Positions 16,748-56,355 of a stretch of 64,000 nucleotides of DNA are shown one piece after another. The stretch lies in contig JBJMIB010000037.1 in assembly GCA_045807085.1 (NCBI GenBank), forward strand, positions 39,546 through 103,545, written 5' to 3'. The notes below the pieces were generated by a model, which was not told the origin of the DNA, made no database searches, and saw only the letters and a list, made by a program, of their open reading frames with translations. Numbering within the stretch: the stretch's first letter is position 1; each line of letters starts with the position of its first letter. Position numbers and translations under genes: made by a program. The stretch is from Jatrophihabitantaceae bacterium (GTDB lineage Bacteria; Actinomycetota; Actinomycetes; Mycobacteriales; Jatrophihabitantaceae).

Positions 16748-16781
16748 CCGAGCCGATCCACCGACGAGTCGCGGGACGGGA

Positions 16782-16815
16782 GGGGGCGCCGCCGGGCGGA
16801 CCCGGCGACGCCCCC
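16782..16815. terminator. GC-rich hairpin between convergent genes
   Basis: GGGGGCGCCGCCGGG-CGGA-CCCGGCGACGCCCCC, 15-bp stem with one mismatch. Confidence 0.6.
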
Positions 16816-16828
16816 GCTCAGTGGCCGA

Positions 16829-18769: not shown

Positions 18770-18974
18770 ACGCACCTCCAGGCACACGAGCGCGGAGGGT
18801 CGCGCCCGAAACGAAGCCGGGCGCAGCCGCGCTCGGCGTGACTCCGACGTAGGGTCGGCAACGCCTGGAGCTACCGGCTCGGGCGCTTGTTTGATCCATC
18901 GGAGGCTATAGCTGCGCGGAAGTCTGAACCTACTCGGAGATTGCCCTGCCCGTCTGGGCATTTCCCAATGCCTG

Positions 18975-19198
18975 GCCTCAGCCAGTACCGAGATCGGTGC
19001 GGCTTGCCAGCAACCGGCCGTTCTTTCTCCCAGCGCCTCAGCCAGTGCCCAGATCGGTGCGGCTTGCCAGCAGTCGCGATTCTTTTCTCCCAGCGCCTCA
19101 GCCAGTACCGAGATCGGTGCGGCTTGCCAGCAACCGGCCGTTCTTTCTCCCAGCGCCTCAGCCAGTACCGAGATCGGTGCGGCTTGCCAGCAACCGCC
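18975..19198. repeat. 60-bp tandem repeat, about 3.7 copies, containing the rsgA 3' end and stop codon
   Basis: Unit GCCTCAGCCAGTACCGAGATCGGTGCGGCTTGCCAGCAACCGGCCGTTCTTTCTCCCAGC starts at 18975, 19035 (variant), 19095 and 19155 (partial). Confidence 0.95.
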
Positions 19199-20165: not shown

Positions 20166-21445
20166 CAGCCGGACTGCTCCAGCATCGCGTGCCACAGCCC
20201 GGGGAAGTCGGCGAGCGTCTTGCTGGTGCAGCCGATGTCGTCCACGGTCAGGCCGGCCACCGCCAGCCCGAGCAGCGCGCCGGCCTGGGCCATCCGATGG
20301 TCGGCGTAGGCCCGCCAGCAGGTCGGTCGCAGCGGCGCCGGCCGGATCACCAGCCCGTCCTCGGTCTCCTGCACCGCGGCACCGGCCGCGCTGAGCTCGC
20401 CGCGCAGCGCGGCCAGCCGATCGGTCTCGTGCCCCCGGATGTGCGCCACCCCGGTGATCCGGCACTCGCCGTCGGCCAGCGCGCACAGCGCCGCGATCAC
20501 CGGCGTCAACTCACTCGCCTCATGCAGGTCGGCCGCCAGCGGGCCGATCGAGCCGGTTCCGGTGACGGTCAGGCCGCGCTCGTCCAGCGTCACCGAGGCG
20601 CCCATCCGGGTGAGCAGTTCGGGCAGCAGGGCGCCCGGCTGGTCGGTCTCGGCCGGCCAGTGCGGCACCGTCACGGCTCCGCCGGTGACCAGCGCGGCGG
20701 CCAGGAACGGCGCGGCGTTGGACAGGTCCGGCTCGATCACCTGATCGGGCAGGTCGAGCTTGCCCGGGGCCACCAGCCAGCGCCGATCGGATAACTCCTC
20801 CACCGAACCGCCGGCCGCCTGCACCGCGGCCACCGTCATCCGCACGTGCGGCAGCGACGGCAGCGGGCCGCCGAGATGCCGGATGTCGGCGCCCTCGGCA
20901 AACCTGGCCCCGGCCAGCAGCAGCGCCGAGACGAACTGCGAGGATGCGGAGAAGTCCAGTTCCAGCACGCCGCCACGCACCTCACCGGTGCCGTGCACGG
21001 TGAACGGCAGCCGGCCGGTGCCGCCGTCGGAGATCGCCACGCCGGCCTGTCGCAGTGCCTGGATCAGCGTCTGGATCGGACGTATCCGAGCGGCCGGGTC
21101 GCCGTCGAAGGTGCTGTCCCCGGCGGCCAGCGCGGCCAGCGGTGGCACGAACCGCATCACCGTGCCGGCCAGCCCGCAGGCCACCCGGCCGCCGTGCAGG
21201 CCGGCCGGCTGGACGATCCAGTCCGGGCCGGCCGCGGTGACGGTAACCCCCAGCGCGGTCAGCGCGTCAGCCATCAGCGTGGTGTCGCGGGCGATCAGCG
21301 GTGCGCCGATCCGGGTCGGCGTGTGCGACAGCGCGGCCAGCACCAGGGCGCGGTTGGTCAGCGACTTCGAGCCGGGCAGCGCCACCACGGCCGCCAGCCG
21401 GCCGGTTGCCACCGGCGCCGGCCAGGGTTGATCCGCTTGGGTCAC
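20165..21445 (-). CDS. aroA: 3-phosphoshikimate 1-carboxyvinyltransferase
   Basis: LPGSKSLTNR, GLAGTVMRF, SASSQFVS, EPDLSNA, RGHETDR, DHRMA, SKT; start trimmed to GTG 21445. Confidence 0.95.
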   Translation of the reverse strand: MTQADQPWPAPVATGRLAAVVALPGSKSLTNRALVLAALSHTPTRIGAPLIARDTTLMADALTALGVTVTAAGPDWIVQPAGLHGGRVACGLAGTVMRFVPPLAALAAGDSTFDGDPAARIRPIQTLIQALRQAGVAISDGGTGRLPFTVHGTGEVRGGVLELDFSASSQFVSALLLAGARFAEGADIRHLGGPLPSLPHVRMTVAAVQAAGGSVEELSDRRWLVAPGKLDLPDQVIEPDLSNAAPFLAAALVTGGAVTVPHWPAETDQPGALLPELLTRMGASVTLDERGLTVTGTGSIGPLAADLHEASELTPVIAALCALADGECRITGVAHIRGHETDRLAALRGELSAAGAAVQETEDGLVIRPAPLRPTCWRAYADHRMAQAGALLGLAVAGLTVDDIGCTSKTLADFPGLWHAMLEQSG

Positions 21446-38693: not shown

Positions 38694-38921
38694 GGCCGTC
38701 CCCCCATCAGGCGTGCTCGCTTGGTCTGCGGGGTTAGGAAAGCGGGTGTCGGCCGGGTTCCGCATCCGTAGCCACTACGTAGCAGCGGCCGACGTCCGCG
38801 CACGTACTGCGTAGTCGCTACCGACGTGTCCGGCGCGGCCGGCAGGCGATGCTGACGTGTGTCGCGACGAACTCGATCGGATCGGCCAAACCGGGGCTCG
38901 GGTCGCGGTACTGTGCGCGTC

Positions 38922-41516
38922 ATGGCCCATCGGTGGCCTTTCATCGGTCGCGCAGGTGAGTTGGCGCGCATCGAGTCCTTGATCACGTCCGGCATCGGCG
39001 CGCTCATCCTCGGCGAGCCGGGCGTCGGCAAGGCGGCCCTGGCCCGCCGCGCGGCGGAGCGGGTCGGCCCGGCAGCGCCGGTCGGACGCGTCATCGGGCG
39101 GGCGGTGTCCAACGGTGCACCGTTCGAGGCCTTCGCCGGGGTGCTGACGGCGGCCGACACCTCGGTCCTCTATCCCGTCGAGGTGGCGCGGCGGGTGGCC
39201 GAGGCGTTCGGGTCGCCGATCGGTACCAAGGTGCTGTTCGTGGTCGATGATGCTCAACTGCTCGATGAGCGCTCGGCACAGGTGTTGCTGCAACTCGCCG
39301 CCGACGGCACCGCGACGGTGTTGGCGACCGCCCGCGACCTCAGGCTGCCCGCGGCGGTTGAGCGGTTGTGGTACGACGGCTGGTGCGAGCGGATCGAGCT
39401 TGGCGGGTTGGCCGACGACGAGGTTCTGGAGCTCCTCGAAACCGTTCTCGACGCACCTGTCGGCGCTGCCGCCGCGCGGGCCTTCGCCAGCCGAGCCCAG
39501 GGCAATCCGTTATTGCTGCGCGAGCTCGTCGGCGCCGCGCTGAATGCCTCGACCCTCGTGTGGCGGGGCACGGCTTGGACGCTGGCCGGCGAGCCTCCGA
39601 TCAGCAGCGGCGTCCGGGAGCTGGTGAGGTCCCGGCTGGCGGCGCTGCCCGAGGCACAGCGCTCTGCTCTGGAGACGGTGGCCGCAGGGGAACCCCTCCC
39701 GGCTCCGGTCGTGGTCGACCTGATCGGTGAGACGGTGCTGGACGACCTCGACGCGAATCGGCTGATCACTGTCCACACCGGACTGGCCGGGCCGGAGGTC
39801 AGCAGCGCGCACCCATTGCAAGGTGAGGTGCTGCGCGCCGACATCCCGCTGCTGCGACTGCGCCGGCTTCGGCTGTTGTTGGCCAGCAAGCTGGAGGCCG
39901 TCGAAAGCCCGTCGCCGCACGATCTCGTCCGGGCAGCGTTGTGGCGGCTGGAGAACGGGCGGAGCGTAGATCCCGAGCGGCTGCTGGCTGCCGCCCGGGC
40001 CGCGCGAGGCATGAGTCTCGACACGGCCGAGCGGCTGGCCCGGCACGCGCACGAGATGAGCGGCTCGCTGCAGGCCACCGTGCTGCTCGCCGAGATCCTC
40101 ACGCACGCCGGGCGTAATGCGGAGGCAACGAAGCTGACCGAGACGCTGCCACCGGAATCGCTCACCTCGGCCGACCGGGAAGCCCTGGTGTACTGCGCCG
40201 CGATGGGGCAGGGTCTGATGATCGGCGACGCCGCCGGCGGCGCCGACTTCGTGGCCGCGGTGATGGCCGGCGATCCGGCCGCCAGTGACCAGTTACGTGG
40301 CTTGCACGCCTCGCTGCTGGCCTTCGACGGGCGATCGGGCGAGGCGATCGAGGTGGCCGGCCCGCTCGTCGAGAATCCGGACGCGCATCCGGTCGCGCGG
40401 ACGTTCGCGGCGATCGGCGCGGTCGGCGCCGAGTACTGGCTCGGCCATACTCGCCACGCAGTCGCCTTGGCTGACGCGGTCGCTCCGGTGGCCGCGACGG
40501 TCCGGGATGCGTTGCCCTTCGGCCCGGCCAGCATCGAGTTGATCGCCATCTGCGCACTGATCGAGGAGGGCGCGTTCGATCGGGCCGAAATGCGCGCCCA
40601 CCGGATGCGGGCACGGGCCACGGCCGATGATGACGCGTTCGCCGGCCCTCGAGGCGAGTACTGCATGGCCCGGGTCGAACTTGCCCGCGGCCGGCCCGCG
40701 ACCGCGCTGCGGGGATTCCGTCGCTGCGTGGCCGCACTCACCCCGTTCGACCAATCGTTCCTGCGACATATCAGCTCGATGCTGGCCCGGGCAGCCGCCA
40801 CCGTCGGAGATGTGACCAGCGCGCGGCAGGCCCTCGATGCCTGCGCCGACGCCCCGCGGATGAAGATGTACGAGCCGGAGTTCGAACTCGCCGTGGCCGC
40901 GCTGCATGCCGCCGATGTGCGGATGGCCGAGGCCGCCGACCATGCGGCCTGGGCCGCCGGCGTGGCCGCCGACCAGGGGCAGTGGAATGTCGCGCTCGCG
41001 GGTTATCACGACGCGGCTCGCTACGGCGTCGCCCGGACCATCCTCATCCCGCTGCGCGAGGCCGCCACGCACGTCGACGGGACGTTCGCGTGGTGCCTGA
41101 TCGACCACGCCTCGGCGTTGGCGGCCCGCGACCCGGTCGCGCTGGACGAGGTCGCCCGCCGGTTCGAGGTGCACTGCACGATCCTGCTGGCGGCCGAGGC
41201 GTCGGCCGAGGCTGCGCTCGCGCACACCGCTGCCGGGCATCCCCGGCCGGCCCGGGCCAGCGCGGCCCGCGCGGCGCTGCTGCGGGGTCAGTGCGAGGGT
41301 GCGTTGTCGCCCTGGTTGTTCGGTGCCGCCGTGGCGGTGCCGCTGACCGCGCGCGAACGGCAGATCGCCGCGCTGGCGGCCGGCGGCAACTCCGACGCGG
41401 CTATCGCCGACCGGCTCGGCATCTCTGCCCGAACCGTGCAGACCCACCTGGCCCGGGTCTACACCAAGCTCGGCATCAACAGCCGCACCGAGATCGGCCA
41501 GCACCTCAACGCCTGA
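38922..41516 (+). CDS. Large ATP-binding LuxR-family (LAL-like) regulator
   Basis: FIGRAGEL, GEPGVGKA Walker A variant, VVDDAQLLD, QGNPLLLREL, C-terminal LTARERQIA..AAGGNSDAAIADRLGISARTVQTHL. Confidence 0.88.
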   Translation: MAHRWPFIGRAGELARIESLITSGIGALILGEPGVGKAALARRAAERVGPAAPVGRVIGRAVSNGAPFEAFAGVLTAADTSVLYPVEVARRVAEAFGSPIGTKVLFVVDDAQLLDERSAQVLLQLAADGTATVLATARDLRLPAAVERLWYDGWCERIELGGLADDEVLELLETVLDAPVGAAAARAFASRAQGNPLLLRELVGAALNASTLVWRGTAWTLAGEPPISSGVRELVRSRLAALPEAQRSALETVAAGEPLPAPVVVDLIGETVLDDLDANRLITVHTGLAGPEVSSAHPLQGEVLRADIPLLRLRRLRLLLASKLEAVESPSPHDLVRAALWRLENGRSVDPERLLAAARAARGMSLDTAERLARHAHEMSGSLQATVLLAEILTHAGRNAEATKLTETLPPESLTSADREALVYCAAMGQGLMIGDAAGGADFVAAVMAGDPAASDQLRGLHASLLAFDGRSGEAIEVAGPLVENPDAHPVARTFAAIGAVGAEYWLGHTRHAVALADAVAPVAATVRDALPFGPASIELIAICALIEEGAFDRAEMRAHRMRARATADDDAFAGPRGEYCMARVELARGRPATALRGFRRCVAALTPFDQSFLRHISSMLARAAATVGDVTSARQALDACADAPRMKMYEPEFELAVAALHAADVRMAEAADHAAWAAGVAADQGQWNVALAGYHDAARYGVARTILIPLREAATHVDGTFAWCLIDHASALAARDPVALDEVARRFEVHCTILLAAEASAEAALAHTAAGHPRPARASAARAALLRGQCEGALSPWLFGAAVAVPLTARERQIAALAAGGNSDAAIADRLGISARTVQTHLARVYTKLGINSRTEIGQHLNA

Positions 41517-43467: not shown

Positions 43468-43494
43468 CTAGGCAGCCTTCTTGGTCTCCCAGAA
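43468..43494. repeat. att core, left copy (duplicated sodN 3' end)
   Basis: CTAGGCAGCCTTCTTGGTCTCCCAGAA, identical to 52273-52299; encodes FWETKKAA-stop on the minus strand. Confidence 0.95.
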
Positions 43495-43496
43495 TT

Positions 43497-43639
43497 TGCG
43501 GACCACGCTGCAGGTCCGCGAATCCGGGCTCAGAGCCGCGCACCCCCCGGATTTCCTGGCCTCCGTACCGCTGACAAGCGTTGGCATCCGTGGGGGTCCG
43601 CTGGGCACGTTGCGGACTCCTTGCGGACAGCCTGCGGAC
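43497..43639 (+). promoter_or_regulatory. Integrase arm-type sites, left end of the element
   Basis: TGCGGAC at 43497, 43611, 43622, 43633 and inverted GTCCGCG at 43514. Confidence 0.75.
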
Positions 43640-43720
43640 TGACGTAAGCGGCCCGGCCGAGTGTTCGAAGCACTCAACCGGGCCTTGCCGAACTACCTAC
43701 CAGAGTTAGGAAGCCCGACC

Positions 43721-44194
43721 ATGAGCAAGAGTACGAGCGCCGGCAGACAGATACCTGATGAGGCCGCCGTCACAAAGCCATCCGTCCGAGCGCTGTGCTG
43801 CCAGTGCGGCCAGCTCAACACCTTTCCGACCGACCGCCCGTCGCCAAAGGGTGGCCTCAACTGGCGCGGCGAACGACAGCCCGTCGATGTGCGGGCCGGC
43901 ATCGTGCCGGCCGACGACGACACCGAGGCGTGGGCACGGTGTGTCATTCAGCGCCGCTGCCCGAACTGCAGAGAGCACACGACGCACGCCCTGCTGCGGG
44001 ATGAGCCCAGCCAGTACCGGGACAGTTTGGAGCGCACGCACCGGCTGCGCTGCGAGCAGGGCCGCAGGTACGACCCCGAGCCGCCCGAAGGGTGGACTCA
44101 ATGGGCGCTCGGCTACTGCACGTACTGCAGGTCTGGCATCGCGGAGTGGTTCGCCGACGTGCGTCGCTGGGATGCGCGTAGGGGCGGTGCCTGA
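43721..44194 (+). CDS. Cys-rich hypothetical protein (putative zinc-binding, phage-like)
   Basis: CCQC, CPNC, CTYC motifs; AGGAAG upstream of ATG 43721; TGATG coupling to the next ORF. Confidence 0.65.
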   Translation: MSKSTSAGRQIPDEAAVTKPSVRALCCQCGQLNTFPTDRPSPKGGLNWRGERQPVDVRAGIVPADDDTEAWARCVIQRRCPNCREHTTHALLRDEPSQYRDSLERTHRLRCEQGRRYDPEPPEGWTQWALGYCTYCRSGIAEWFADVRRWDARRGGA

Positions 44195-44373
44195 TGTACC
44201 TGGACGCGTGGCTGAACGATGACACCCCGCCGCACCCGCGCCGCCGCCTGACCGACCGCTGGTGGTATCGGCTCGGCCGGGCCGTGATCCTGCTCGGCAC
44301 GCACGCTGCCGCCGGGTGGATCGGGTACGACTGGCCCGCCGTCCTAGTGTGGATCGCCAGCAACCCGAAGTAG
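44194..44373 (+). CDS. 59-aa small membrane protein (not in the ORF track)
   Basis: MYLDAWLNDDTPPHPRRRLTDRWWYRLGRAVILLGTHAAAGWIGYDWPAVLVWIASNPK; translationally coupled and followed by a terminator. Confidence 0.6.
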   Translation: MYLDAWLNDDTPPHPRRRLTDRWWYRLGRAVILLGTHAAAGWIGYDWPAVLVWIASNPK

Positions 44374-44385
44374 AGCCCGCGCCGC

Positions 44386-44425
44386 CAAGAGGCCAGGTGT
44401 TCGAAACTGAACACCTGGCCTCTTG
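44386..44425 (+). terminator. Perfect 17-bp stem hairpin
   Basis: CAAGAGGCCAGGTGTTC-GAAACT-GAACACCTGGCCTCTTG, 12 bp after the stop at 44373. Confidence 0.8.
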
Positions 44426-44434
44426 CTGTGTGCG

Positions 44435-44959
44435 ATGATCCGGGCCGTGAACAGTGTTAGAACCGGCGCGGCGGGCGGCGCTGCGATGTTCCTGTTCCTG
44501 GTCCTAGCGCTTGCCGGTTGCACGGGGCACACGGGCCGAACCCCGCAGGAGCGAGCAGCCGCGTACGTGCAGAAGTATGGTGCTGAGGCGGTAGCTGTCC
44601 AGGGGGATGTGCAACAGGTGCAAGCCTTGCTTAAGACGACCGCCGCGAACGCCACCGACGCGAGCGTGGGCCGCCTGGCCATCATGGCGCAGGCCGCTCA
44701 CGATGACCTCGACTCGGGTAGGAGCGATTTCGCCACCGACGGGGGCGGTGGGGATGTCGGCGCGGCGATCACCTCCATGTACTCGGCCGTCAACGACTTG
44801 AAGAACGCCATGGGCGGCATCGTCGCCTACACCGGGAACCCGAACCCGGCCACTGAGGCGAAGATGGTCACTCAGTACCAGAACGCCGTCGCCGAGTGGA
44901 ACGACGCCGTGACGACGATCTGGTCAGTGGCCGGCGAGGGTAAGCCGCCGACGGTCTAG
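44435..44959 (+). CDS. Element-encoded lipoprotein (helical)
   Basis: Hydrophobic MFLFLVLALAGC lipobox followed by an alpha-helical, Ala/Gln-rich domain. Confidence 0.75.
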   Translation: MIRAVNSVRTGAAGGAAMFLFLVLALAGCTGHTGRTPQERAAAYVQKYGAEAVAVQGDVQQVQALLKTTAANATDASVGRLAIMAQAAHDDLDSGRSDFATDGGGGDVGAAITSMYSAVNDLKNAMGGIVAYTGNPNPATEAKMVTQYQNAVAEWNDAVTTIWSVAGEGKPPTV

Positions 44960-45270
44960 TCGAAGCGGGGTAGTTCGACGGGCAGCGAGTAGGCGTACAG
45001 CCAGCCGTTCCGCTGCCACCACTGATCGCCGCAGTCCGGCCCGTTGGTGGCGAGCCGGTAGAGCCGCATCCGGGCCCACTCGGTGAAGCTGGCGTCAACC
45101 TCCGGGGGGTTGTCCGGGTTGCTGACCGCGATCACTTCCCACGTCGTGCCCTGGTCGGCCTGCCGGGCCCGCATGAAGCCGCTCCGGCCGTCCCAAGGGA
45201 TCGAGCCGGGACGTGCCGGGATGATGGGCAGCGCGTGCGCCTGCCGCCACGCTTCCGGGTGGTCGTGCAT
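44956..45270 (-). CDS. Hypothetical protein coupled to the tail hub gene
   Basis: ATG at 45270 overlaps the TGA of the upstream gene (TGATG); 104 aa, Trp-rich. Confidence 0.65.
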   Translation of the reverse strand: MHDHPEAWRQAHALPIIPARPGSIPWDGRSGFMRARQADQGTTWEVIAVSNPDNPPEVDASFTEWARMRLYRLATNGPDCGDQWWQRNGWLYAYSLPVELPRFD

Positions 45271-47210
45271 CAGTAGGCGAAGACCATCGAGTCGAGCAAC
45301 CCATAGACCGGATCGTCGAGCGTGGCGTACAGGGAAGGATCGGCCGGCGCGGTGTTCAACGTCAGGGTGCAGGTGTCGGACCGGCCGGAGAAGTCCCACG
45401 ACAGCGACTCGATGACGAAATCCATGCTCGTGGACGGTGCCTCTGCCGGCAGCCCGGACACGGTGAACTGAACCCCGATCTCGGCCAGCGCCGCCACTGA
45501 CCAGAGGTCGCTGGCCCGCTTGAGGTCGATCGTCACGGTCGGTGTGCGCGGGATCGGCTGGGCGAGTCGGCCGATGCGGAAGTTCGCGTAGTCGGCCAGC
45601 TCGTTGTCGCTGGTGAGCTGCAGCAGTTCCGCGCCGGAGTCGTCGGGCGAGTTGGTGTAGACGCCGTAGTCGGCCACCGACGTCCCGGTGTCCCGGACCC
45701 GGATCACCGCGCCACCCGGACGGGTCACGGCGTAGTCGTTCAGCAGCAGCCCGTCGTCGATGCCGACCTGGAAATCCGCGGTCACGTCCTGCGCGGCGGC
45801 ATTCAGGCTGAACGCTGAGGTGCGGTTCATCGAGGCGAGCCGGCTACGGAAGATCAGCGCACCATCGCCCCGCATGAACAGCAGGCCCTGCTCGGTCTTG
45901 GCGACCGTCTGCAGCGCATCGAGGAAGGTCTTACCCGTAGTGTCGAACGGCGCGACGGCCGCTGTCATGCCGGTATCGGCGACCACCAACGGAGCGGCGA
46001 ACTGGTTGTAGCCGGCGAGCTGCGCGATGTCCGTCACCCATGAGCCGGTGTCGTTGTTGAGGTAGTACATCTGCCGGCCGTACAGCCAGCGGATGCTGTT
46101 GTTCAGCGTCGTGTCGGTGCCGATGTAGAACCCGATGTTCGCCAGGGAGCCGTTCAGGCCGTAGGCGGACTCGCCGTAGTTGGAGTACCGGCCGCCGGCG
46201 ACTACCCATGTCATGCCCCGCAGATAGATGTTCGCGCTGGTGGCGACGAAGGTTGCGGCCACCCCGTCCACGATCACCTGCTGAGTCTTCAGGTCGGTGA
46301 AGAACGACGCGGTGACGTAGTGCCAGACCCCATCGGCGTAGCTCGCGGCGCTGGTGACGGCCTGCCCGCCGATGGCGAAGTTCACCTTGCCGGCCGTGTC
46401 GACGTAGAGGTGCATCGTCGATGGCGGCAGCGTCGGTGTCAGCGCCGGGTCCTGCTGCAGCCCGGACGTGGCATACAACAAGGTTGCGTTGGCTGAAGGC
46501 GTGGTCAGCTTGAACCAGCATCCGATCGTCCAGTTCCCGGTGCGGGGCAGGCTCACCCCGGCAGGCCCCGGAGCGCCGCCGAGTTGGATCACGGTCATGT
46601 GCTCGGCGTTGCCGCTGCCGGTGAAGGCGAACGTGCAGTAGGTGGCGTTCGGCGCGCCCTGCAGGAACCCGGCACCGTTGCCGGCGGTGAACGTCCCGGC
46701 CCCGTACTTCGAGTCGAGCAACTGCGCCACGGGTGGCGAGGCGGCCGGCGCGATCGAGCCGAACGCCGTAGCGCCGGATGGCTCGGACAGCGGGAACGCG
46801 GCGGTGACGGTCATCCCGGACTGCAGCACCGACTCGGCGTAGAAGCTCTGCATCGTGCGCCGAGCTAGGCCCTTGAACCCGTCCGTCGCGCCGATGTTGA
46901 CAACCGCGGTCCGGCCACCGTCCCAGCTGGTGACGACGCTATCGAGGTTGCCGGTGAACAGGTAGGTGACGACGCTGGCGACGGTGACCGACACCCTCAC
47001 CGGCCGGTTCACCTTGACGTTCGGGTGTCCCGCGCCGGGCGAGTAGTTGCCGCTGTTGTTGTACAGGCTGCCGGAGAGCGTGCCGGGGCCGACCTGGTCG
47101 AACTCGTGCCCCCGTCCGCGGTTGATGCTGATCGAGTCGCAGTCGGCGGTTATGTCGGTCCAGGTGCCGGTGTTCGGCCAGTCGACTTCGACCTTCAGCG
47201 TGCCGCTCAT
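45270..47210 (-). CDS. Phage minor tail / baseplate hub-like protein with an inserted LamG (concanavalin A-like) domain
   Basis: AAGGA RBS; N-terminal WTDITADCDSISINRGRG..D..GPGTLS..LYN typical of actinophage tail proteins; LamG motifs WTIGCWFK, YADGVWHYV, VIVDGV, GGR..LNGSLANI; hub-like C-terminus LDALQTVAKTEQGLLFMRGDGALIFRSR. Confidence 0.75.
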   Translation of the reverse strand: MSGTLKVEVDWPNTGTWTDITADCDSISINRGRGHEFDQVGPGTLSGSLYNNSGNYSPGAGHPNVKVNRPVRVSVTVASVVTYLFTGNLDSVVTSWDGGRTAVVNIGATDGFKGLARRTMQSFYAESVLQSGMTVTAAFPLSEPSGATAFGSIAPAASPPVAQLLDSKYGAGTFTAGNGAGFLQGAPNATYCTFAFTGSGNAEHMTVIQLGGAPGPAGVSLPRTGNWTIGCWFKLTTPSANATLLYATSGLQQDPALTPTLPPSTMHLYVDTAGKVNFAIGGQAVTSAASYADGVWHYVTASFFTDLKTQQVIVDGVAATFVATSANIYLRGMTWVVAGGRYSNYGESAYGLNGSLANIGFYIGTDTTLNNSIRWLYGRQMYYLNNDTGSWVTDIAQLAGYNQFAAPLVVADTGMTAAVAPFDTTGKTFLDALQTVAKTEQGLLFMRGDGALIFRSRLASMNRTSAFSLNAAAQDVTADFQVGIDDGLLLNDYAVTRPGGAVIRVRDTGTSVADYGVYTNSPDDSGAELLQLTSDNELADYANFRIGRLAQPIPRTPTVTIDLKRASDLWSVAALAEIGVQFTVSGLPAEAPSTSMDFVIESLSWDFSGRSDTCTLTLNTAPADPSLYATLDDPVYGLLDSMVFAY

Positions 47211-47377
47211 CGTGTGTCCTTGCTGTAGGTGGACCCGGGAGCGCAGGCAGCGGGTACGCCCTCCGAGCAAGGGCTGAGCGTGGCGGCTAATTGGAGGCCG
47301 CGCCGGTTGCCTTGGATTCCCGCGCGCCGCGATTGCCCTAGCAGCGCGGGGGTGACTTTGACGCTCACCGGGTCAGG

Positions 47378-47551
47378 TCAGTCGTCGGTCGGCAGGGTCA
47401 CCCGGTCACCGACCGAGACTCCGGCCGTCAGGGTCGCTGTGCTCTGCTCGGCCATCTCCGCGAGGGCCAGCGCGACCGCGTTGGCCGGGCGGGACGTGAT
47501 GCAGTCGTCCGGGGTGCCGTCATCCGGCACGCCGGCAGGTTGGGTAATCAC
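47378..47551 (-). CDS. 57-aa small ORF (not in the ORF track)
   Basis: GTGA overlap with the upstream gene stop; MITQPAGVPDDGTPDDCITSRPANAVALALAEMAEQSTATLTAGVSVGDRVTLPTDD. Confidence 0.5.
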   Translation of the reverse strand: MITQPAGVPDDGTPDDCITSRPANAVALALAEMAEQSTATLTAGVSVGDRVTLPTDD

Positions 47552-48075
47552 TGGACGCCCCGCTCCATCGCGGACAGCCGCACGGCGGTCCGGATGAGCT
47601 TGGTGTCCCGACGACGGCGGGCGGTGATCCGCGCGGCGCGGTCGGCCAGCTCAGCGGCCTCCTGCACCTCCTCGAACGACGGTGCGGACGTGTCGGCCGA
47701 CGTGTCGCCGTACCATGCCTCGTTGCACTTGTCCTGCACCCACTTGGCCTGTAGGCCGGCCTGCCGCGCGTCTTCCCAGTCCATTCGGGACGACGCCAGC
47801 GCGACCATCTCGGCCCGGGTGTGCCCGATGCCGCCGTTACGGACGGCCTCCCGCACGTCGAAGATTTCGCCCCGGTCGACCGCGAGTTCGATCGAGGCCC
47901 TGATCCGCTTGTCCTCGTCCTGCGCCCGCAGCTCGGCCCGCTCCCGCTCCACCCGGGCGGCCTGCTGGTCGAACGCGGCATCGGCCATCTCGCACCGCAG
48001 CCGCAACGACGGCGACATGCGCTCACGGGACGCGCCGCCGAACCCGCCACCTACGAAAACAACCATCTCAGTCAC
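47548..48075 (-). CDS. Hypothetical helical/coiled-coil protein
   Basis: AAGGAG upstream, GTGA overlap with the HTH gene; heptad-like QQAARVERERAELRAQ segment. Confidence 0.65.
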   Translation of the reverse strand: MTEMVVFVGGGFGGASRERMSPSLRLRCEMADAAFDQQAARVERERAELRAQDEDKRIRASIELAVDRGEIFDVREAVRNGGIGHTRAEMVALASSRMDWEDARQAGLQAKWVQDKCNEAWYGDTSADTSAPSFEEVQEAAELADRAARITARRRRDTKLIRTAVRLSAMERGVQ

Positions 48076-48479
48076 TCGGAATTCTCCTTCGGGGTGGCCG
48101 GCAGCCCGGCGACGTAGGTCTGTAGGTCGGCAGTCCGCACAACCGCCTTGCCGGCGATGCGGACGCTGGGCAGTTCACCGGCAGCGATGAGCCGCTGTGC
48201 AGAGCGCTTCGAGCAGCGCAGCGCGTCAGCGGCTTCGTCAACGTCCAGCACAAGAGCCATGGGCGCAGAGTCAGCCTCAGCACCCGAGCCCGGCAAGTTT
48301 GGCGCTCCCTGGCGCTCGGTGGCGCTCTCTGTCGTTTCCAGCACCGCGATCAGGTCCCGCACGACAGCCGGAACGGGCAAGCCCTCAGCCCGACGACGCG
48401 TCCGATAGCTCACCAGGGCACGCCGCAGATGCACCCCATCGGACGCGTCCAGCGCCAACACCAGCGCCGAGCTACCCAT
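48072..48479 (-). CDS. Excisionase-like HTH_17 domain protein
   Basis: C-terminal LDVDEAADALRCSKRSAQRLIAAGELPSVRIAGKAVVRTADL; start trimmed to ATG 48479. Confidence 0.8.
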   Translation of the reverse strand: MGSSALVLALDASDGVHLRRALVSYRTRRRAEGLPVPAVVRDLIAVLETTESATERQGAPNLPGSGAEADSAPMALVLDVDEAADALRCSKRSAQRLIAAGELPSVRIAGKAVVRTADLQTYVAGLPATPKENSE

Positions 48480-48513
48480 GATCGCGCGCCCGCATCGTGG
48501 AAGACCCGGCACT

Positions 48514-48698
48514 CCGACCCGCCAGCCGAGCTTTTTCTGTCTGTAGCCGAAAAAAAGCAAGCCGTCGTGAAACGCCGGGCGCACCCGACCCGCCAGCCGA
48601 ACAGATTTCTCCCCCCGATACCCCGGGGAGGGGGGTAGGTAGCCGCGTGGTGGTGGAAAAAAAGCCGTAGATAGAAAAGGTTCGGCTGGCGGGTCGAG
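48514..48698. promoter_or_regulatory. Symmetric non-coding site: candidate packaging (cos-like) or replication site
   Basis: Three identical 15-mers CGACCCGCCAGCCGA (48515, 48586, inverted at 48682), a 28-bp inverted repeat (25/28), A7 tracts, and a central C6-GATA-CCCCGGGG-A-G6 near-palindrome. Confidence 0.55.
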
Positions 48699-48849
48699 AG
48701 GCCGTTCGGTTTCGCGATCCGGTTCGGTTGTGGGCTGCCGTGTCGCGCTCGGCCCGGTCGAGTTCGATGCACCCGGCGATGGTCAGGCCGGCGAGCGGGG
48801 TCAGCCAGGAGGCTGTCACCAGCATGTTGTGCAGGGCGGCGTACAGCAT

Positions 48850-49557
48850 TTAGCTGGCCCTGATGTCGAGCTGAGGGAATGGGCAGTACTGGCCTGCGGT
48901 CAGCCTGTGGCAGCCGGAGTTGTCGCCCATCGTGGTCCGTCGTCGGCACTCGCTGCAGTTCGGCTCTGTGCCGCTGGTGTTCGGTGAGTCGGCAACGGTG
49001 GTGGTGGTGTCCGGTGCTGCTTCGTCGGTGCGCTGTTCCTGGTGTTGCTGGTCGGGTGCGTCGCGGCTGCCGTCGTGGTCGGGTCGCCGGTCGCGGCCTT
49101 GGTCTAAGGCTCCGTGCTCACTTGCGTTCGCGCTGTCTTCTATTGACTCGGCCACTAGGTGGCACACTCGTTCGGGCCGGGAGTGTGTACTTTCTGGCTC
49201 ACTCGTTCGGCCATTAGTGGTGCACTCCCTAGCTTCGGAGTAGGCCACATGTGGCGCACTATCGCCTTGCGGAGTAGGCCATTCGTGGCACACTCCGGGC
49301 AGTGCCGCCTGATACCTCGATCGGGCACCGACACCGCCCCGGGCGATGCGGTCCAGCCAGCCGGCGTCAACCGCTTTCGCCAGGTGGCGCGCGAGCGTCC
49401 GGACAGGTAGCCCGGTCAGCTCGGCCATCTCCGTATTCGTGGCCGTGATGGTGCCCTCGGTGGTCATCGGCAGCAGCAGCAGCGTTGCCCGTGCGATCCG
49501 TAGCCCGGCCGGGAAGTCGCCGCGCCGTACCTCGCGTAGCCACTGCCCGCGGTTCAT
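48850..49557 (-). CDS. Winged-HTH replication initiator-like protein
   Basis: N-terminal wHTH TNTEMAELTGLPVRTLARHLAKAVDAGWL..G....SRY, internal iterons, low-complexity linker, C-terminal Cys cluster. Confidence 0.7.
   Translation of the reverse strand: MNRGQWLREVRRGDFPAGLRIARATLLLLPMTTEGTITATNTEMAELTGLPVRTLARHLAKAVDAGWLDRIARGGVGARSRYQAALPGVCHEWPTPQGDSAPHVAYSEARECTTNGRTSEPESTHSRPERVCHLVAESIEDSANASEHGALDQGRDRRPDHDGSRDAPDQQHQEQRTDEAAPDTTTTVADSPNTSGTEPNCSECRRRTTMGDNSGCHRLTAGQYCPFPQLDIRAS
49150..49294. repeat. Four iterons inside the initiator gene (putative ori)
   Basis: GGCCA-N4/5-TGGYRCACT at 49150, 49209, 49243, 49277; the last three are spaced exactly 34 bp. Confidence 0.8.
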
Positions 49558-49784
49558 GGTGACCCGCCGAGAGTGAGTTCCACCTGGTGCCCGTCGGCCA
49601 CCAGCGCGGCCTCAACGTCTGCAAGGTGCTGGCGGGCTACCAGGTAGGCGTGCCGGCGATGGTCGTACATCCACGGGATGCCGAGCCGCTGAATGGCGGG
49701 GTGCACGATCCGAACCGGGCCGCTGATAAGGCCGCTGTGCATGTGCACGCCGGTTCGGATGGTGGAGGAGGTCTTCTTCTTCAC
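49554..49784 (-). CDS. Hypothetical protein
   Basis: 76 aa; GTGA and ATGA overlaps on both sides within the early operon. Confidence 0.65.
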   Translation of the reverse strand: MKKKTSSTIRTGVHMHSGLISGPVRIVHPAIQRLGIPWMYDHRRHAYLVARQHLADVEAALVADGHQVELTLGGSP

Positions 49785-50209
49785 GCGGCAACACCTGGGT
49801 CTCCATCGAGAAGATCACCGCGATCTCCATCGAGCCGAACACCTGGGTAGTCAGGTGAGCCGCCGTACCGCTGCCGGTTGCGGTACGCCTGTTCGAATCT
49901 GTAGCACTTCGCGCAGCGCCTGCAGCGAGTCCGGCAAGGCTCGTTGTCGCACTGCCGAGCCCGCGCCAGCTCATCCTGCGTCGGCTGCCTGAGTGTGGAG
50001 ATCGTCGGTGCAAGCCACTCACTGACCCGTTCGGCGTGCGCGTCCCACCCCGCGAGCCAGCCCGCCGTGTAGTGACCGAACTCCTCCGGGGAGAACGGCC
50101 AGAACGGCGAGGTTCTGTCGGTGCCAGCGGGTAGGATCGGGCCGTCAGTGGTGCGGTTTGGGATCGGGTCGGTCTGGGCGGGCCGACCTTTTCCATCCGG
50201 CGGGCTCAC
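49781..50209 (-). CDS. Hypothetical protein with a Cys-rich motif
   Basis: GTG 50209 overlaps the upstream TGA; GWLAGW and CRTRCRRCAKC motifs. Confidence 0.6.
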   Translation of the reverse strand: MSPPDGKGRPAQTDPIPNRTTDGPILPAGTDRTSPFWPFSPEEFGHYTAGWLAGWDAHAERVSEWLAPTISTLRQPTQDELARARQCDNEPCRTRCRRCAKCYRFEQAYRNRQRYGGSPDYPGVRLDGDRGDLLDGDPGVAA

Positions 50210-50394
50210 GCGGCATCGCCGCTGCAGCTCTGCGCGTCGATCCACTGCTCTAGCGCATCGGCGGGGTACCGGACGAGACGGCCGGTCTTGATCCACTTCG
50301 GGCCATAGCCGATGCCGCGCCAGTAGCGCAGCGTTTCGATCGGCCGCTTCAACCGCGCCCCGACTTCTAGCGGGGTGAGTAGTTCGCTCATCAC
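50206..50394 (-). CDS. AlpA/excisionase-type HTH protein
   Basis: LLTPLEVGARLKRPIETLRYWR..GYGPKWIKTGRLVRY....LEQWI; GGAG RBS. Confidence 0.88.
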   Translation of the reverse strand: MMSELLTPLEVGARLKRPIETLRYWRGIGYGPKWIKTGRLVRYPADALEQWIDAQSCSGDAA

Positions 50395-50402
50395 GTCTCC
50401 TA

Positions 50403-50498
50403 TTCGCGTAGGTGCTCTGGCCTACATACATAGCGTGACAGCGAGAGCGAACGCGTAGGAGCGTTGACTTACGCGGGAGGTCGTGTAACCTACGCGTT
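50403..50498. promoter_or_regulatory. Divergent switch region with operator repeats
   Basis: CGCGTAGG at 50405 and 50452; perfect inverted repeat AACGCGTAGG (50450-50459) / CCTACGCGTT (50489-50498); TTGACT-N16-TAACCT ending 7 nt before GTG 50499. Confidence 0.65.
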
Positions 50499-51152
50499 GT
50501 GACGCTTTTCTCGATCGGCCGGGCCGGCTGGGTCCGGTTCGAATCCGCGGACTGCCCGCCGACCTACCTCCGGTACCTGCCTGACGAGATCGGCCGATGG
50601 ACGCTGCGCGAGCTGATGATGGACGCCAGCGAGTCTCCGGCGATCACAGCGGCGACTCTGGCCGCGCTGCCGCTGGCCCAAATCGAGTTCAATGTGAACT
50701 ACTACGCCGACTTGATGGAGGGCAGCCAAGAGGGCGGCCAAACGCTATCGAGCGCGGTCGGTGGTCCTGCTGCCGGCTCCAACGTGGCTGTCCTCGCTTC
50801 CCATTTCGCTACCGGCTTCGTCAAGTACCAGCCGGAGAAGTGGGTAGCGCTCGCGCAGCAGGGTAAGCAGGTCGGCAAGGAGCGACGCGCTGTAGGGGCC
50901 AAACGTCCGACTCTGGACGTTGACTACCGCCTCACGGAACCGCCGCCCGGCAGGTTGACCGATGAGTTTCTAGGCAAGGTGGCGCGCGCCTATGCCGCTG
51001 CGATGGTGCGGGGTGAAGCGCCGCTCCAAGCAATGATCGCGGACCTTCGAGCGGCAGGCGCTGGCGACTACCGGCGCGCGGTTGAGCGCTGGGTTGCTAC
51101 AGCACGGAAACGCGGCGTCATGCCGCCCGGCAAGAAAGGTGCTCGCGGATGA
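50499..51152 (+). CDS. Putative regulator with a C-terminal HTH-like region (resembles DUF6214)
   Basis: LGKVARAYAAAMVRGEAPLQAM...AVERWVATARKRGVM; divergent from AlpA-like gene and ATGA-coupled to the integrase. Confidence 0.6.
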   Translation: MTLFSIGRAGWVRFESADCPPTYLRYLPDEIGRWTLRELMMDASESPAITAATLAALPLAQIEFNVNYYADLMEGSQEGGQTLSSAVGGPAAGSNVAVLASHFATGFVKYQPEKWVALAQQGKQVGKERRAVGAKRPTLDVDYRLTEPPPGRLTDEFLGKVARAYAAAMVRGEAPLQAMIADLRAAGAGDYRRAVERWVATARKRGVMPPGKKGARG

Positions 51153-52237
51153 GCAGCAGCATCACCAAGCGGCCGAACGGTCAATGGCGGGCCCGGTACC
51201 GGGACGCGGACAACCGGGAGCACGCTCGGCACTTCTCCCGCAAGGTGGACGGGCAGCGCTGGCTGGACGAGCAGACCGCTGGCCTGGTCACCGGGCAGCA
51301 CATCGACCCCCGCTCGGCCAAGGTCACCTTGCGCGCCTACGCCGAACAGTGGGAAGCGGTGCAGGTCTGCCGGCCGGCAACCGCCAGCATCACCAGCAAC
51401 GCGCTCCGGCTGCATATCCTGCCCCGGCTCGGCAACCGGCCCATGTCGTCGATCCTGCGAACCGACGTTCAGGCACTCGTCAAGGCCCTGTCCGATGACC
51501 TGGCACCGTCCAGCACCCGGAACGTTTACGACACCTTAACGCGGGTGTTCGGTGCCGCTGTCGATGACCGGATCGTTGCCAGCTCACCATGCCGCCGGAT
51601 CACCCTGCCCCCGGTCGATGACAGCGAGATCGTGCCGCCGACCGTCGAACAGGTCCGGGCGATGGTGGACGCCATGCCCGAGCGGTACCGCGCCGCCGTT
51701 GTGCTGCTGGCCGGGTCCGGCCTGCGGATCGGGGAACTGCTCGGCCTGCAGCGCTCCGACGTGGACTTTCTGCGCCGCACCGTCCGGGTAGAGCGGCAAC
51801 GGCTGCAGAACGGCCAGCTAGGGCCCTGCAAGACCGGCAAGAGCGTCCGCACCGTCCCGCTCGGCCAGGTCGTCATCGACCAGCTAGCCGCCCACCTGGC
51901 TTCGGGCTCCGTGGAGCCCGAAGCCTCACCTGAGATGTTCACGGCCGGGAGGGGTCAGCCGCTCCGCTACAACGCCTGGAAGGCGGCCTGGCAGGCCGCG
52001 TGCCGGGTCACCGGGCACGAGCTGACCACGCACGACCTGAGGCACTTCTACGCGTCCAGCCTGATCGCCGGGGGAGCGTCGGTGAAGCAGGTTCAGACGG
52101 TGCTCGGCCACGCCAGCCCGGTCGTCACCTTGCGGGTGTACTCGCACATGTGGCCCGGCGACGATGACCGGGTACGCACGATCACCGATGCCACGCTGGA
52201 GCCCTTGCGGACTATCTGCGGACAGCAGGCGGTGTGA
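51149..52237 (+). CDS. Tyrosine recombinase / phage integrase
   Basis: N-terminal arm-binding WRARYRD; catalytic GLRIGELLGL (R), KT, HDLRHFYAS (HxxR), LGH, TLRVYSH (Y). Confidence 0.96.
   Translation: MSSSITKRPNGQWRARYRDADNREHARHFSRKVDGQRWLDEQTAGLVTGQHIDPRSAKVTLRAYAEQWEAVQVCRPATASITSNALRLHILPRLGNRPMSSILRTDVQALVKALSDDLAPSSTRNVYDTLTRVFGAAVDDRIVASSPCRRITLPPVDDSEIVPPTVEQVRAMVDAMPERYRAAVVLLAGSGLRIGELLGLQRSDVDFLRRTVRVERQRLQNGQLGPCKTGKSVRTVPLGQVVIDQLAAHLASGSVEPEASPEMFTAGRGQPLRYNAWKAAWQAACRVTGHELTTHDLRHFYASSLIAGGASVKQVQTVLGHASPVVTLRVYSHMWPGDDDRVRTITDATLEPLRTICGQQAV
52206..52223 (+). promoter_or_regulatory. Integrase arm-type sites, right end of the element
   Basis: TGCGGAC at 52206 and 52217 (11-bp period), within the end of int. 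Confidence 0.75.
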
Positions 52238-52272
52238 GCACCATGCAGCCCAGCAAATACGGGCCTTCCCGC

Positions 52273-52299
52273 CTAGGCAGCCTTCTTGGTCTCCCAGAA
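52273..52299. repeat. att core, right copy (3' end of intact sodN)
   Basis: Identical to 43468-43494. Confidence 0.95.
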
Positions 52300-52671
52300 G
52301 ATCGTGTCGATCTCGGCGATCAGGTCCAGCAGCGCCTGGCCCTCGGCCGGGTCGACGGAGCCCTTGCCGCCGGCCGCGCCGGCTGCCTTGGTGGCCTTGT
52401 TGAACAGCTCGTGCAGCTGCGGGTACTTCTCGAAGTGCGGCGGCTTGAAGTAGTCGGTCCACAGCACCCACAGGTGGTGCTTGACCAGGTCTGCCCGCTG
52501 CTCCTTGATCAGCAGCGCCCGGGTGCGAAAGACCGGGTCCTCGTTGGCCTGGTACTTCTCCATGATGGCCTTCACCGACTCGGCTTCGATCCGAGCCTGG
52601 GCCGGGTCGTAGACACCGCACGGCAGGTCGCAGTGAGCTGAGGCAGTGGCCACACGACGCATCAAGCGCAT
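52273..52671 (-). CDS. sodN: Nickel superoxide dismutase
   Basis: Leader followed by the nickel hook HCDLPCGVYDPAQA; HLWVLWTDYFK. Confidence 0.97.
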   Translation of the reverse strand: MRLMRRVATASAHCDLPCGVYDPAQARIEAESVKAIMEKYQANEDPVFRTRALLIKEQRADLVKHHLWVLWTDYFKPPHFEKYPQLHELFNKATKAAGAAGGKGSVDPAEGQALLDLIAEIDTIFWETKKAA

Positions 52672-54900: not shown

Positions 54901-56169
54901 CTATCCGGAGTCGGTGTCGTGTCGGGTGCCGGTCGGGTCGGTGAGTAGTTCGGGATGGTGCAGATAGTTGCGTTGTGGTTGCTGGGTCGGGTGCCAGTCT
55001 GGTGGTTGCCAGTGTGGGATGCCGTTGAGCATGACCGTCCGCCAACCCTGCTTCGGCGCTTCGACGTTGTGGTAGCCGCAGGCGATCGCCATGCTGTCCA
55101 GGTTGGTGTGGCCGCCGGTGGCCCAGTCGGTGGCGTGATGGATCTCCGACCGTGCGGCGCTGCGGTCGCAGCCGGGAAAGGTGCAGCCACGGTCGCGGGC
55201 GAATAGCGCTTTGCGCTGGCCGGGTGAGGCCAGCCGGCGGCCGCGGCCGTAGGCGAGGATGCCGCCGGTGTCGTCGAGCACGGCGGGCAGTAGACCGCCG
55301 TCGGCGGCGAGGCGCAGCGCGTCGTCGATGGTGAGGGTGCCGCCGTGGTGGGTGGTGGCTCGGCCGGCCCGGCGTTCCACGTCGGTGAGGCTCAGGGTGA
55401 GGATCAGCTGGCTGGGTAGCCCGGCGTGGTCGGGCAGCTCGCCGGTGGCGAGCAGTCGGCGGCCGGCTTCTTCGAACGCGTCGTGCAGCCGCTGCGCCGG
55501 ACTGCGATCATCCGCACCGAGCGCGTCGTCCGGTCGGGCAGCGGCCAGCGGGGTGAGGACCGCTTCCCAGATGGCCTGGCAGGCCGGTGTGAGCCGGCCG
55601 TCCAGCAGCCCGGTCGAATCCGGGAGGCAGGTCAAGGAGAGTCGCCGGTGGGCCTGTTGCAGCCGCCGCTCGTCGGGGCTGGGGCCGTCCGGGTCCAGGT
55701 GGGCCAGGATCCGCTGGCCGAGCAACCGGATCGTGCGCGGATCGCTGGTCCGAGCGTGCTCCACCAGCGTTGATTCCACCGGTGCCGCGTGTGCGGCCCG
55801 CTCCGCCGCGGGGATGGCCTCGACCGTCTCGGCGATCGCCGCCGCGTGCTCGCAACCGACCTCACCGGCCTCGAATGCGGCGGCCGTGGCGGGCAGCATC
55901 GGCTCCAGCGGCTCGCCGATCAAGCTCCGCCGGGCACCGAACCGCTCGACCGCCTGCGCCCGCTTCCGCGCCTCGGCCCGGCCGCAGCGCAGCTGCGCCG
56001 CGATCAAGTCCGACAGCCCGCGGAAGCCCAACGTGCCGGGCACACTCCGCGCGTTGAGTTCGGCCAACACCGCCAACTGCCGGTATCGCAAGCGAGCCAG
56101 CTCGGCTTCCAGCTCCACAACCTCGGCGAGCAGCTGAGCATCCGTAGCGGTCCCGAGCGGCTCGATCAC
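54901..56169 (-). CDS. DUF222 / HNH endonuclease signature protein (13E12-repeat family)
   Basis: RSPAQRLHDAF, GRGRRLASPGQRKALFARDRGCTFPGC, EIHHATDWATGGHTNL....ACGYHN. Confidence 0.9.
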   Translation of the reverse strand: MIEPLGTATDAQLLAEVVELEAELARLRYRQLAVLAELNARSVPGTLGFRGLSDLIAAQLRCGRAEARKRAQAVERFGARRSLIGEPLEPMLPATAAAFEAGEVGCEHAAAIAETVEAIPAAERAAHAAPVESTLVEHARTSDPRTIRLLGQRILAHLDPDGPSPDERRLQQAHRRLSLTCLPDSTGLLDGRLTPACQAIWEAVLTPLAAARPDDALGADDRSPAQRLHDAFEEAGRRLLATGELPDHAGLPSQLILTLSLTDVERRAGRATTHHGGTLTIDDALRLAADGGLLPAVLDDTGGILAYGRGRRLASPGQRKALFARDRGCTFPGCDRSAARSEIHHATDWATGGHTNLDSMAIACGYHNVEAPKQGWRTVMLNGIPHWQPPDWHPTQQPQRNYLHHPELLTDPTGTRHDTDSG

Positions 56170-56177
56170 ATGTTCGA
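56162..56177. promoter_or_regulatory. LexA SOS box overlapping the DUF222 start
   Basis: TCGATC-ACAT-GTTCGA, one mismatch from the actinobacterial TCGAAC-N4-GTTCGA; TAGAAT -10 directly adjacent on the minus strand. Confidence 0.7.
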
Positions 56178-56355
56178 TTCTACCGTACCGAACAGCGATA
56201 GGCAAGCCTCGCCGTCCATGAATTTCCTTATGAAGTAAGGCGAAAACGAAAAGCAGCAACGCAACCGAGGCGGAAGCACGACTCCTCGCCGCTGCGCCTT
56301 TTTGTTTGGCCGAAAGGCAGATCACCAGCGTTCCGGGCGTCTGGCAGCGGTGGCT

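Follow-up and report, generated by a model that had tools for sequence, protein, structure and literature searches.

What does a single phage tail gene do in a small integrated element that carries no other recognized part of a virion? The question is raised by a contig of a high-GC actinobacterium, JBJMIB010000037.1, of which positions 39,546 to 103,545 were analyzed as one stretch of 64,000 nucleotides (the window; all island and gene coordinates given below are window positions). An island of 8.8 kb (43468–52299) lies here in the 3′ end of sodN, the gene for nickel superoxide dismutase, and carries as cargo a gene for a 646-residue protein that is predicted to be the hub of a siphophage tail tip, with a fold of the gp27/Mu gp44 type into which a LamG domain is inserted; no other recognized virion gene is aboard. 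The reading favored below, tentatively and with a probability of roughly 0.4, is that the island is a phage satellite whose hub would enter the tail tip of a helper siphophage, as happens in the satellites of Vibrio cholerae known as PLE, elements that resemble phage-inducible chromosomal islands.

The hub gene occupies 45270–47210 on the minus strand, with its ATG at 47210 and a TGA stop at 45272–45270, and is preceded by a ribosome-binding site, AAGGA, located 6 nt 5′ of the ATG. A TTG at 47270 would yield an alternative form of 666 residues; phage homologs align from residue 4 of the 646-residue form, which makes the ATG the likely start. The stop codon overlaps the ATG of a downstream open reading frame for a protein of 104 residues, here called g104 (44956–45270, minus strand), in the motif TGATG. 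Both genes have a G+C content at third codon positions (GC3) of 0.91, which matches the coding signature of the genome. A preliminary description of this DNA had proposed a 646-residue open reading frame with its own ribosome-binding site and a TGATG-coupled downstream frame, and this arrangement was confirmed when the frames were read again.

Family and structure comparisons place the protein among tail-tip hubs. PHROG 5313, a family with no assigned function, matches residues 73–634 (E value 6e-50), and a full HMMER scan of 1.84 billion representatives returned 2926 relatives at E ≤ 1e-3, of which 84 reached E ≤ 1e-30; lengths of 600–660 residues and alignment from end to end predominate. 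An AlphaFold2 model of the single chain, for which an alignment with 57 relatives served as input, has a mean predicted local distance difference test score (pLDDT) of 89 and a predicted template-modeling score (pTM) of 0.87. Foldseek comparison of this model with the Protein Data Bank (PDB) gave matches over the whole length of the hub to baseplate chains of contractile injection systems (7b5h, 7aef, and 9gtr), to the tail of the Haloferax tailed virus HFTV1 (9h4p), and to the diffocin baseplate (8v3w). Classical hubs were matched as well, namely Mu gp44 (1wru; template-modeling score over the target [TMt] 0.66) and the MuSo2 43-kDa protein (3cdd; TMt 0.62), as were a tail protein of Neisseria (3d37) and VgrG1 (7q5p); these last four proteins all lack a LamG domain. 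The E values of the hub-fold matches (1wru, 3cdd, 3d37, 7q5p, 7b5h_AJ, 7aef_q, 9gtr_q, and 8v3w_H) range from 3e-9 to 5e-7. Among predicted viral structures, the best match to the hub reached 0.76 on the corresponding score over the query (TMq), and many actinophage proteins annotated as "minor tail proteins" came next. Profile searches found no match at the sequence level between the hub and any solved hub structure. Twenty near-invariant residues of the family are retained. The segments at the N and C termini that had been described as phage-tail-like are thus borne out by PHROG 5313 and by the structural matches, and the fold resembling T4 gp27 that had been expected from an AlphaFold prediction is what the single-chain model displays. 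A different identity, that of a distal tail protein (Dit) with an inserted carbohydrate-binding module, had been guessed initially from an N-terminal motif and the position after the tape measure; it was given up when Foldseek returned gp27/Mu gp44-type hubs instead.

In the model, an N-terminal β domain (residues 1–145; 46776–47210, minus strand), seen in the model and in the Foldseek matches, is separated from C-terminal α/β hub domains (residues 367–646; 45273–46112, minus strand), which correspond to 1wru, 3cdd, and the baseplate chains, by a concanavalin A-like jelly roll of ∼220 residues (about residues 146–366; 46113–46775, minus strand). The assignment of this insert to LamG, which the preliminary description had also made, agrees with a match to Laminin_G_3 (PF13385) at residues 219–359 (32.9 bits; Pfam gathering cut-off 27.6), with profile matches of the hub family to solved neurexin and laminin LG, pentraxin, and sialidase CBM40 structures (down to an E value of 6e-27), and with Foldseek matches of the middle of the model to LG3, pentraxin, and CBM40 (TMt 0.5–0.67 for LG3 and CBM40). 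The fold shared by gp27, Mu gp44, and the N-terminal part of Tal is common to the window hub, and relatives of the hub are likewise placed after a tape measure. What distinguishes the window hub from gp27/Mu gp44-type hubs is the 220-residue LamG insert and its position outside any tail module.

The LamG insert is a general trait of the phage hub family and not peculiar to the window copy. Within the family no domain varies more: its mean identity to the window hub is 22%, compared to 31–35% for the core; in comparison with the nearest relatives, the LamG domain of the window hub is 47% identical and the core 48–58%. LamG has thus changed at the same pace as the core, and nothing points to a recent swap. 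An earlier proposal had cast the protein as a swappable host-range determinant or a dominant-negative tail subunit. The swappable character is not supported, given a LamG domain that is family-wide and shows no sign of exchange; the second, a subunit supplied by a satellite and possibly dominant-negative, remains the leading interpretation, with PLE satellites as its precedent (PMC12987554).

The position of the hub in phages is well defined. Only four close relatives, 40–52% identical, were found among 5.8 billion proteins. Seven phage contexts were inspected, six of them metagenomic: L002, a phage contig of 40 kb that encodes portal, protease, capsid, tube, and tape measure; the shorter contigs L003–L005; L046 and L047, which hold more distant members of the family; and Streptomyces phage Chymera. 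In all seven, the hub homolog begins at or over the stop codon of the tape measure gene, or of a preceding gene truncated where the contig ends, in line with the earlier statement that such proteins follow the tape measure in actinophages. A conserved protein of ∼175 residues begins 8–18 nt after the hub in each of the six metagenomic contexts and is followed by lysis genes on contigs of sufficient length. In Chymera, the hub homolog is gp18 (30% identity to the window hub), and a 145-residue protein and then a lysin come after it. The ∼175-residue protein of L002–L005, L046, and L047 starts with MATxPxPPTFTV and has no family assignment; it has 43 invariant columns across the four phages whose hubs are 40–52% identical to the window hub, and it may be an obligatory tail-tip partner. 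A separate observation concerns L002, where a gene downstream of the lysis genes (16574–20263) encodes a 1229-residue protein with a cellulase (GH5) domain that may be a depolymerase or a fiber.

None of these neighbors accompanies the hub in the island. Comparison with the phage loci and hhalign detected no tape measure, no ∼175-residue protein, and no fragment of either, and scans of the island open reading frames with Pfam, PHROGs, and NCBIfam found no tape measure, major tail, capsid, terminase, or lysin family. The isolation extends to the genome: in the assembly (4.57 Mb, 98% complete), no PF10145 tape measure, PF05065 (HK97) capsid, or PF03354 TerL was found, nor a second hub, nor any homolog of the other virion genes of the closest phage, L002. 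The hub is therefore as solitary as first described, with no tape measure, major tail, or lysin gene nearby. A further suggestion, that a helper with a compatible hub might be identified among resident prophages, was not upheld, since the search of the assembly yielded none, and a resident helper prophage was rejected on the same grounds.

The island is flanked by perfect direct repeats of 27 bp (CTAGGCAGCCTTCTTGGTCTCCCAGAA), which correspond to the last nine codons of sodN. The right attachment site (attR; 52273–52299) is the end of sodN itself (52273–52671, minus strand), and the left site (attL; 43468–43494) is a copy of this 3′ end, with a terminator-like hairpin of sodN just to its left. 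A tyrosine integrase gene (51149–52237, plus strand; Pfam Phage_integrase, E value 3e-26, with SAM-like N-terminal domains) lies next to attR. There is no tRNA gene at the insertion site. sodN is conserved in 40 of 41 relatives, and its downstream flank cannot be aligned even within the genus. The island appears to be absent from the relatives searched: in 100 relatives, no hub homolog exceeded 38% identity, and g104 had no homolog across 400 genomes of the order.

A second copy of the hub module is present on L056, a contig of 2.6 kb that stems from an unrelated run and also holds the only g104 homolog found among 5.8 billion proteins; scans of genome, viral, and metagenome contigs found no further copies of the island. 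Gene order is the same in both, with hub, TGATG, and g104 followed by the convergent genes g178, g59, and g177 and the attachment site. The contig ends inside the hub gene and retains only the last 156 residues, which are 89% identical to the window hub. The g178 homolog is 62% identical, with its lipobox conserved, the g177 homolog is 70% identical, and a g59 homolog is present; the core of the attachment site differs from the window repeat by three mismatches and marks the same end of the island. Substitution rates between the two copies were estimated by the Nei-Gojobori method, for the hub over its C-terminal 156 codons. The hub has a synonymous divergence (dS) of 0.40 and a ratio of nonsynonymous to synonymous substitution (dN/dS) of 0.19, and g104 has a dS of 0.42 and a dN/dS of 0.46; for g178, g59, and g177, dS is 0.53–1.17 and dN/dS 0.25, 0.29, and 0.26, respectively. 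No gene of the module is better conserved between the two copies than the hub, and both the hub and g104 are under purifying selection in the island context. An inert relic is unlikely, given the low dN/dS of the hub and the retention of gene order and TGATG coupling between diverged copies. In a tree of the hub clade, the end branch of the window hub measures 0.54 and those of phage relatives 0.27–0.64 (0.27 and 0.39 for the two nearest); lone departures from columns conserved in the family number eight in the window hub and five to eight in its relatives. In both measures the window hub stays inside the range spanned by its phage clade.

The product of g104 has no match in Pfam, PHROGs, NCBIfam, or PADLOC, and the single homolog that turned up in 5.8 billion proteins (P0160; 65% identity) is likewise encoded behind a hub. 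A single-sequence AlphaFold2 model was unusable (pLDDT 53). Phage homologs of the hub lack g104 and have the unrelated ∼175-residue neighbor in its place (hhalign probability 0.1%), which makes a generic role as hub chaperone unlikely and speaks against the chaperone function offered for the partner in the preliminary description. The same hhalign result eliminated g104 as a shortened form of the ∼175-residue protein. A 122-residue open reading frame in another genome (G266) is 30% identical to g104, with a per-genome E value of 4e-4 across 400 genomes that may reflect chance; no tail gene adjoins it, and it is uninformative. g104 is an island-specific, constrained gene and not the usual phage neighbor of the hub.

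Based on these observations, the island can be read as a phage satellite, and a plausible course of events would begin when a compatible siphophage infects the cell or is induced. The island would then excise and replicate, and a trimer of its hub would replace the helper hub at the start of tail assembly, where tape measure and hub come together. Particles carrying the island would receive a chimeric tail tip with the island's own LamG domain, possibly with altered adsorption, and the substitution would also lower the yield of the helper itself. g104 would probably act either by fitting the foreign hub to helper parts or by blocking the helper hub. The size of the island, its perfect 27-bp repeats, its tyrosine integrase, and the presence of one virion gene only are all traits of a satellite.

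The precedent comes from PLE satellites, which encode their own tape measure, a chaperone, and, in PLE11, a baseplate hub (BhuB) that are built together with ICP1 parts into chimeric tails; a small PLE protein, Rta, blocks the tape measure of the helper (PMC12987554, Nature 2026). That a satellite supplies its own tail part has so far been shown by experiment only in cholera bacteria. Like PLE, the window island is a small integrated island without head genes that has its own tail-initiation part, and a small orphan gene stands beside the tail gene; not every PLE variant has a hub. In contrast to PLE, it comes from another phylum, its hub is of the siphophage rather than the myophage type, and it has a single tail gene without tape measure or chaperone. 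The resemblance would be one of strategy at most; homology to PLE proteins is not expected, and no membership in the PLE family is claimed.

The layout of the island also recalls phage-inducible chromosomal islands (PICI) and their capsid-forming relatives (cf-PICI), with an integrase gene and a gene in the regulator position, divergent xis-like and putative replication genes, a variable accessory end, and a length of less than 10 kb. It differs from them in that no terS, capsid-size, or head-tail adaptor gene was recognized and in its integration into the end of a protein-coding gene, sodN. The PICI and cf-PICI models of SatelliteFinder treat tail genes as "forbidden components," which satellites "never or very rarely" have (PMC10085698), so a standard detector would reject this island. 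Hallmarks of actinomycete integrative and conjugative elements were not found either, as no island open reading frame has a domain of an FtsK/SpoIIIE-type transfer gene or a RepSA/RepAM-type replication gene. MiniFlayer, from Streptomyces (PMC10690885), is an actinobacterial phage satellite, as is proposed for the island; it reportedly encodes encapsidation functions and has a virulent helper, and a tail hub is not reported for it, which sets it apart from the island.

Genes of the island backbone recur in other elements. In an element from another genus of the same family (G037), the integrase (36% identity), g217 in the same position (41%), a g76-like gene, and the rep-like gene (42%) are shared, and a single operon contains an HNH-like gene, a gene for a 155-residue protein, and then a gene for a 1341-residue tape measure with a lysozyme domain. 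Nothing resembling a hub or a capsid protein follows the tape measure. This element (L042; G037:C3, 2437–12458) also has a xis-like gene, and its 155-residue protein belongs to phrog_11991; a second tape measure gene elsewhere in the same genome (C11:92073) may belong to a helper prophage. Three metagenomic contigs (L034–L036) have the g76 and g235 pair at 79–80% identity together with a different integrase, and a NACHT protein of 936–989 residues is encoded on the opposite strand after the rep-like gene. On these contigs (L034, 4565–12304, and likewise L035 and L036), a 170-residue gene is found besides that for the NACHT protein, and a tRNA-Leu gene adjoins. In another genome (G088), a related rep-like gene is 49% identical over the N-terminal 100 residues. 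The corresponding 10-kb contig (L043; G088:C109, 35–10168) combines genes for a serine recombinase and the rep-like protein with those for capsid, portal, prohead protease, and TerL; the gene order is unusual, and no tail genes were seen. It resembles a mini-element of the cf-PICI or phiRv type that forms capsids, with capsid, portal, protease, and TerL as in cf-PICI. Homologs of g217 occur in six genomes of the family, and the five besides G037 have neither a tape measure nor a hub. The backbone is thus that of a phage-related mini-element of mosaic make-up whose cargo slot varies, and in two cases, the window hub and the G037 tape measure, this slot holds a single part of the tail-initiation complex.

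A more far-reaching version of the satellite model would unite these elements. In this version, an actinobacterial family of mini-satellites with a shared integrase, regulator, and replication backbone would replace single tail-initiation parts of their helpers, with a lectin-bearing hub in one member and a tape measure in another, and g104 would act like Rta, disabling the helper hub so that only chimeric, island-carrying particles have working tails. We consider this extension doubtful.

Several points weigh against the satellite interpretation of the window island. No packaging or capsid-redirecting gene was recognized: families of the terS, cpm, sid, and TcaP types are absent from the island open reading frames in Pfam, PHROGs, and NCBIfam scans, in which several frames have no assigned function. 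No helper phage is known, and none resides in the assembly. The hub is only 40–52% identical to any sampled phage hub, and for this reason compatibility with a helper cannot be judged. The replication assignment of g235 depends on weak PHROG matches to replication initiators (E values 2e-5 to 3e-3). The hub module is known in two copies only, and the upstream side of the second lies beyond the contig end. Finally, some eight to ten elements share any backbone gene and just two of these carry a tail gene, so the backbone is not defined by tail cargo.

Instead of serving propagation, the cargo could be devoted to defense alone. The hub and g104 would then form a decoy that co-assembles with the tape measure and tail-tip parts of an invading phage, resulting in dead tails and protecting the population while the island itself remains unpackaged. 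We regard this as unlikely, although several features agree with it. The hub is located in the variable accessory end of the island, and in L034 the gene after an 80%-identical rep gene encodes a NACHT protein, a type known in anti-phage defense. Purifying selection acts on the hub in a genome that lacks a helper, and the conserved lipoprotein gene next to the hub would suit superinfection exclusion. Blocking of tail assembly is moreover established for prophages and satellites, through Tai (PMC11364771), Tab (PMC10884400), and Rta (PMC12987554), which act at tail-tip or tape-measure-dependent assembly, and a decoy hub would have the same outcome. These blockers are, however, small proteins unrelated to tail proteins, whereas the candidate effector here is a complete structural hub. 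A search of the island proteins with PADLOC-DB 2.0 identified no defense family, with only a marginal helix-turn-helix (HTH) match for the excisionase-like protein (mad1; E value 1.4e-3) and no match at all for g104 or the hub. The hub is strongly conserved throughout, its 20 near-invariant residues included, which fits a protein that must still assemble correctly, and incorporation into a tail accounts for this at least as well as poisoning does. The defense and satellite readings are not mutually exclusive; PLE does both.

A leftover of a temperate siphophage, in which deletion has spared a hub that persists by chance or recency and has no present role, is quite unlikely. The integrase, regulator, xis-like, and rep-like genes do resemble the early region of a temperate phage, the scans picked up no packaging function, none of the relatives searched appears to have the island, which is also rare in databases, most elements with shared backbone genes have no tail gene, and the hub has a somewhat longer end branch than either of the two phage homologs nearest to it. 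Yet no fragment of a tape measure or of the ∼175-residue neighbor is left, and the hub is an intact, full-length reading frame that has a ribosome-binding site of its own and is tightly coupled through TGATG to a non-phage gene, a coupling kept in a copy diverged by a dS of 0.40. The dN/dS of 0.19 for the hub and of 0.25–0.46 for its four neighbors, as well as the perfect repeats, also argue against decay, and the arrangement of HNH-like gene, 155-residue protein, and tape measure in G037 would take at least three precise deletions within an operon. Domestication of the hub by the host as a lectin or adhesin, for instance to bind surface glycans, is very improbable: the LamG domain, purifying selection, and the neighboring genes for a lipoprotein and a small membrane protein would suit it, but the N terminus has no signal peptide or secretion signal, the hub core is at least as conserved as LamG, and the gene belongs to a mobile island with integration and putative replication genes rather than to a host operon.

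The remaining genes of the island fall on either side of the hub operon. Between attL and g104, on the plus strand, lie g177 (43661–44194), a Cys-rich accessory protein with a DUF6315 domain (Pfam, 32.4 bits); g59 (44194–44373; GC3 0.93), a small hydrophobic protein of 59 residues; and g178 (44423–44959), a predicted lipoprotein with the lipobox LAGC, convergent with the hub operon. Upstream of the hub, after a gap of 167 nt, the overlapping small genes g57 and g175 (47378–48075, minus strand; GC3 0.86–0.89) have no family match in Pfam, PHROG, or NCBIfam scans. They were considered as tape-measure remnants and rejected, as neither is similar to any gene of five phage loci. They are followed by g170 (48072–48584, minus strand), which encodes an excisionase-type HTH_17 protein (Pfam E value 9.6e-11; TIGR01764, "excise"; PHROG 66), and by g76 and g235 (48850–49784, minus strand), a putative replication module in which g235 is a winged-helix-turn-helix protein resembling a replication initiator. 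g217 (50499–51152, plus strand) overlaps the start of the integrase gene and is a candidate regulator by its position; it has no family match in the same scans. A promoter and terminator scan remained at background level.

Other features of the window were noted in passing. Between a LuxR-type regulator gene (38859–41516) and attL, the segment 41585–43467 contains open reading frames of 204, 213, and 224 residues with a lower GC3 (about 0.75) and no family match, and it could be what remains of an older insertion at the same site. A gene for a DUF222 protein (13E12-repeat/HNH-associated) of a kind typical of actinobacterial mobile DNA is found near the island at 54901–56325. A tRNA-Arg(CCT) of 99 nt called by ARAGORN at 10872–10970 lies inside a high-GC3 reading frame of 747 residues (9109–11352) and is likely to be spurious.

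Before 2026, the prevailing view was that tail genes do not occur in satellites; PLEs then revealed a tape measure and a hub of their own in the tail of the helper (PMC10085698, PMC12987554). If the window island acts as PLE does, the strategy would be no oddity of Vibrio and would have an independent origin in high-GC Gram-positive bacteria with siphophage helpers, and many islands with a lone tail gene that have been filed as prophage debris would merit a second look. Should the extension to a family of mini-satellites hold, these elements would be the first tail-substituting satellites outside the Vibrio PLEs, and the first for siphophages and for Gram-positive hosts, and they would represent a class that current satellite detectors exclude by design. 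The hub and its 104-residue partner provide a compact, testable system, and a satellite-borne hub with its own lectin domain could alter which cells the particles bind.

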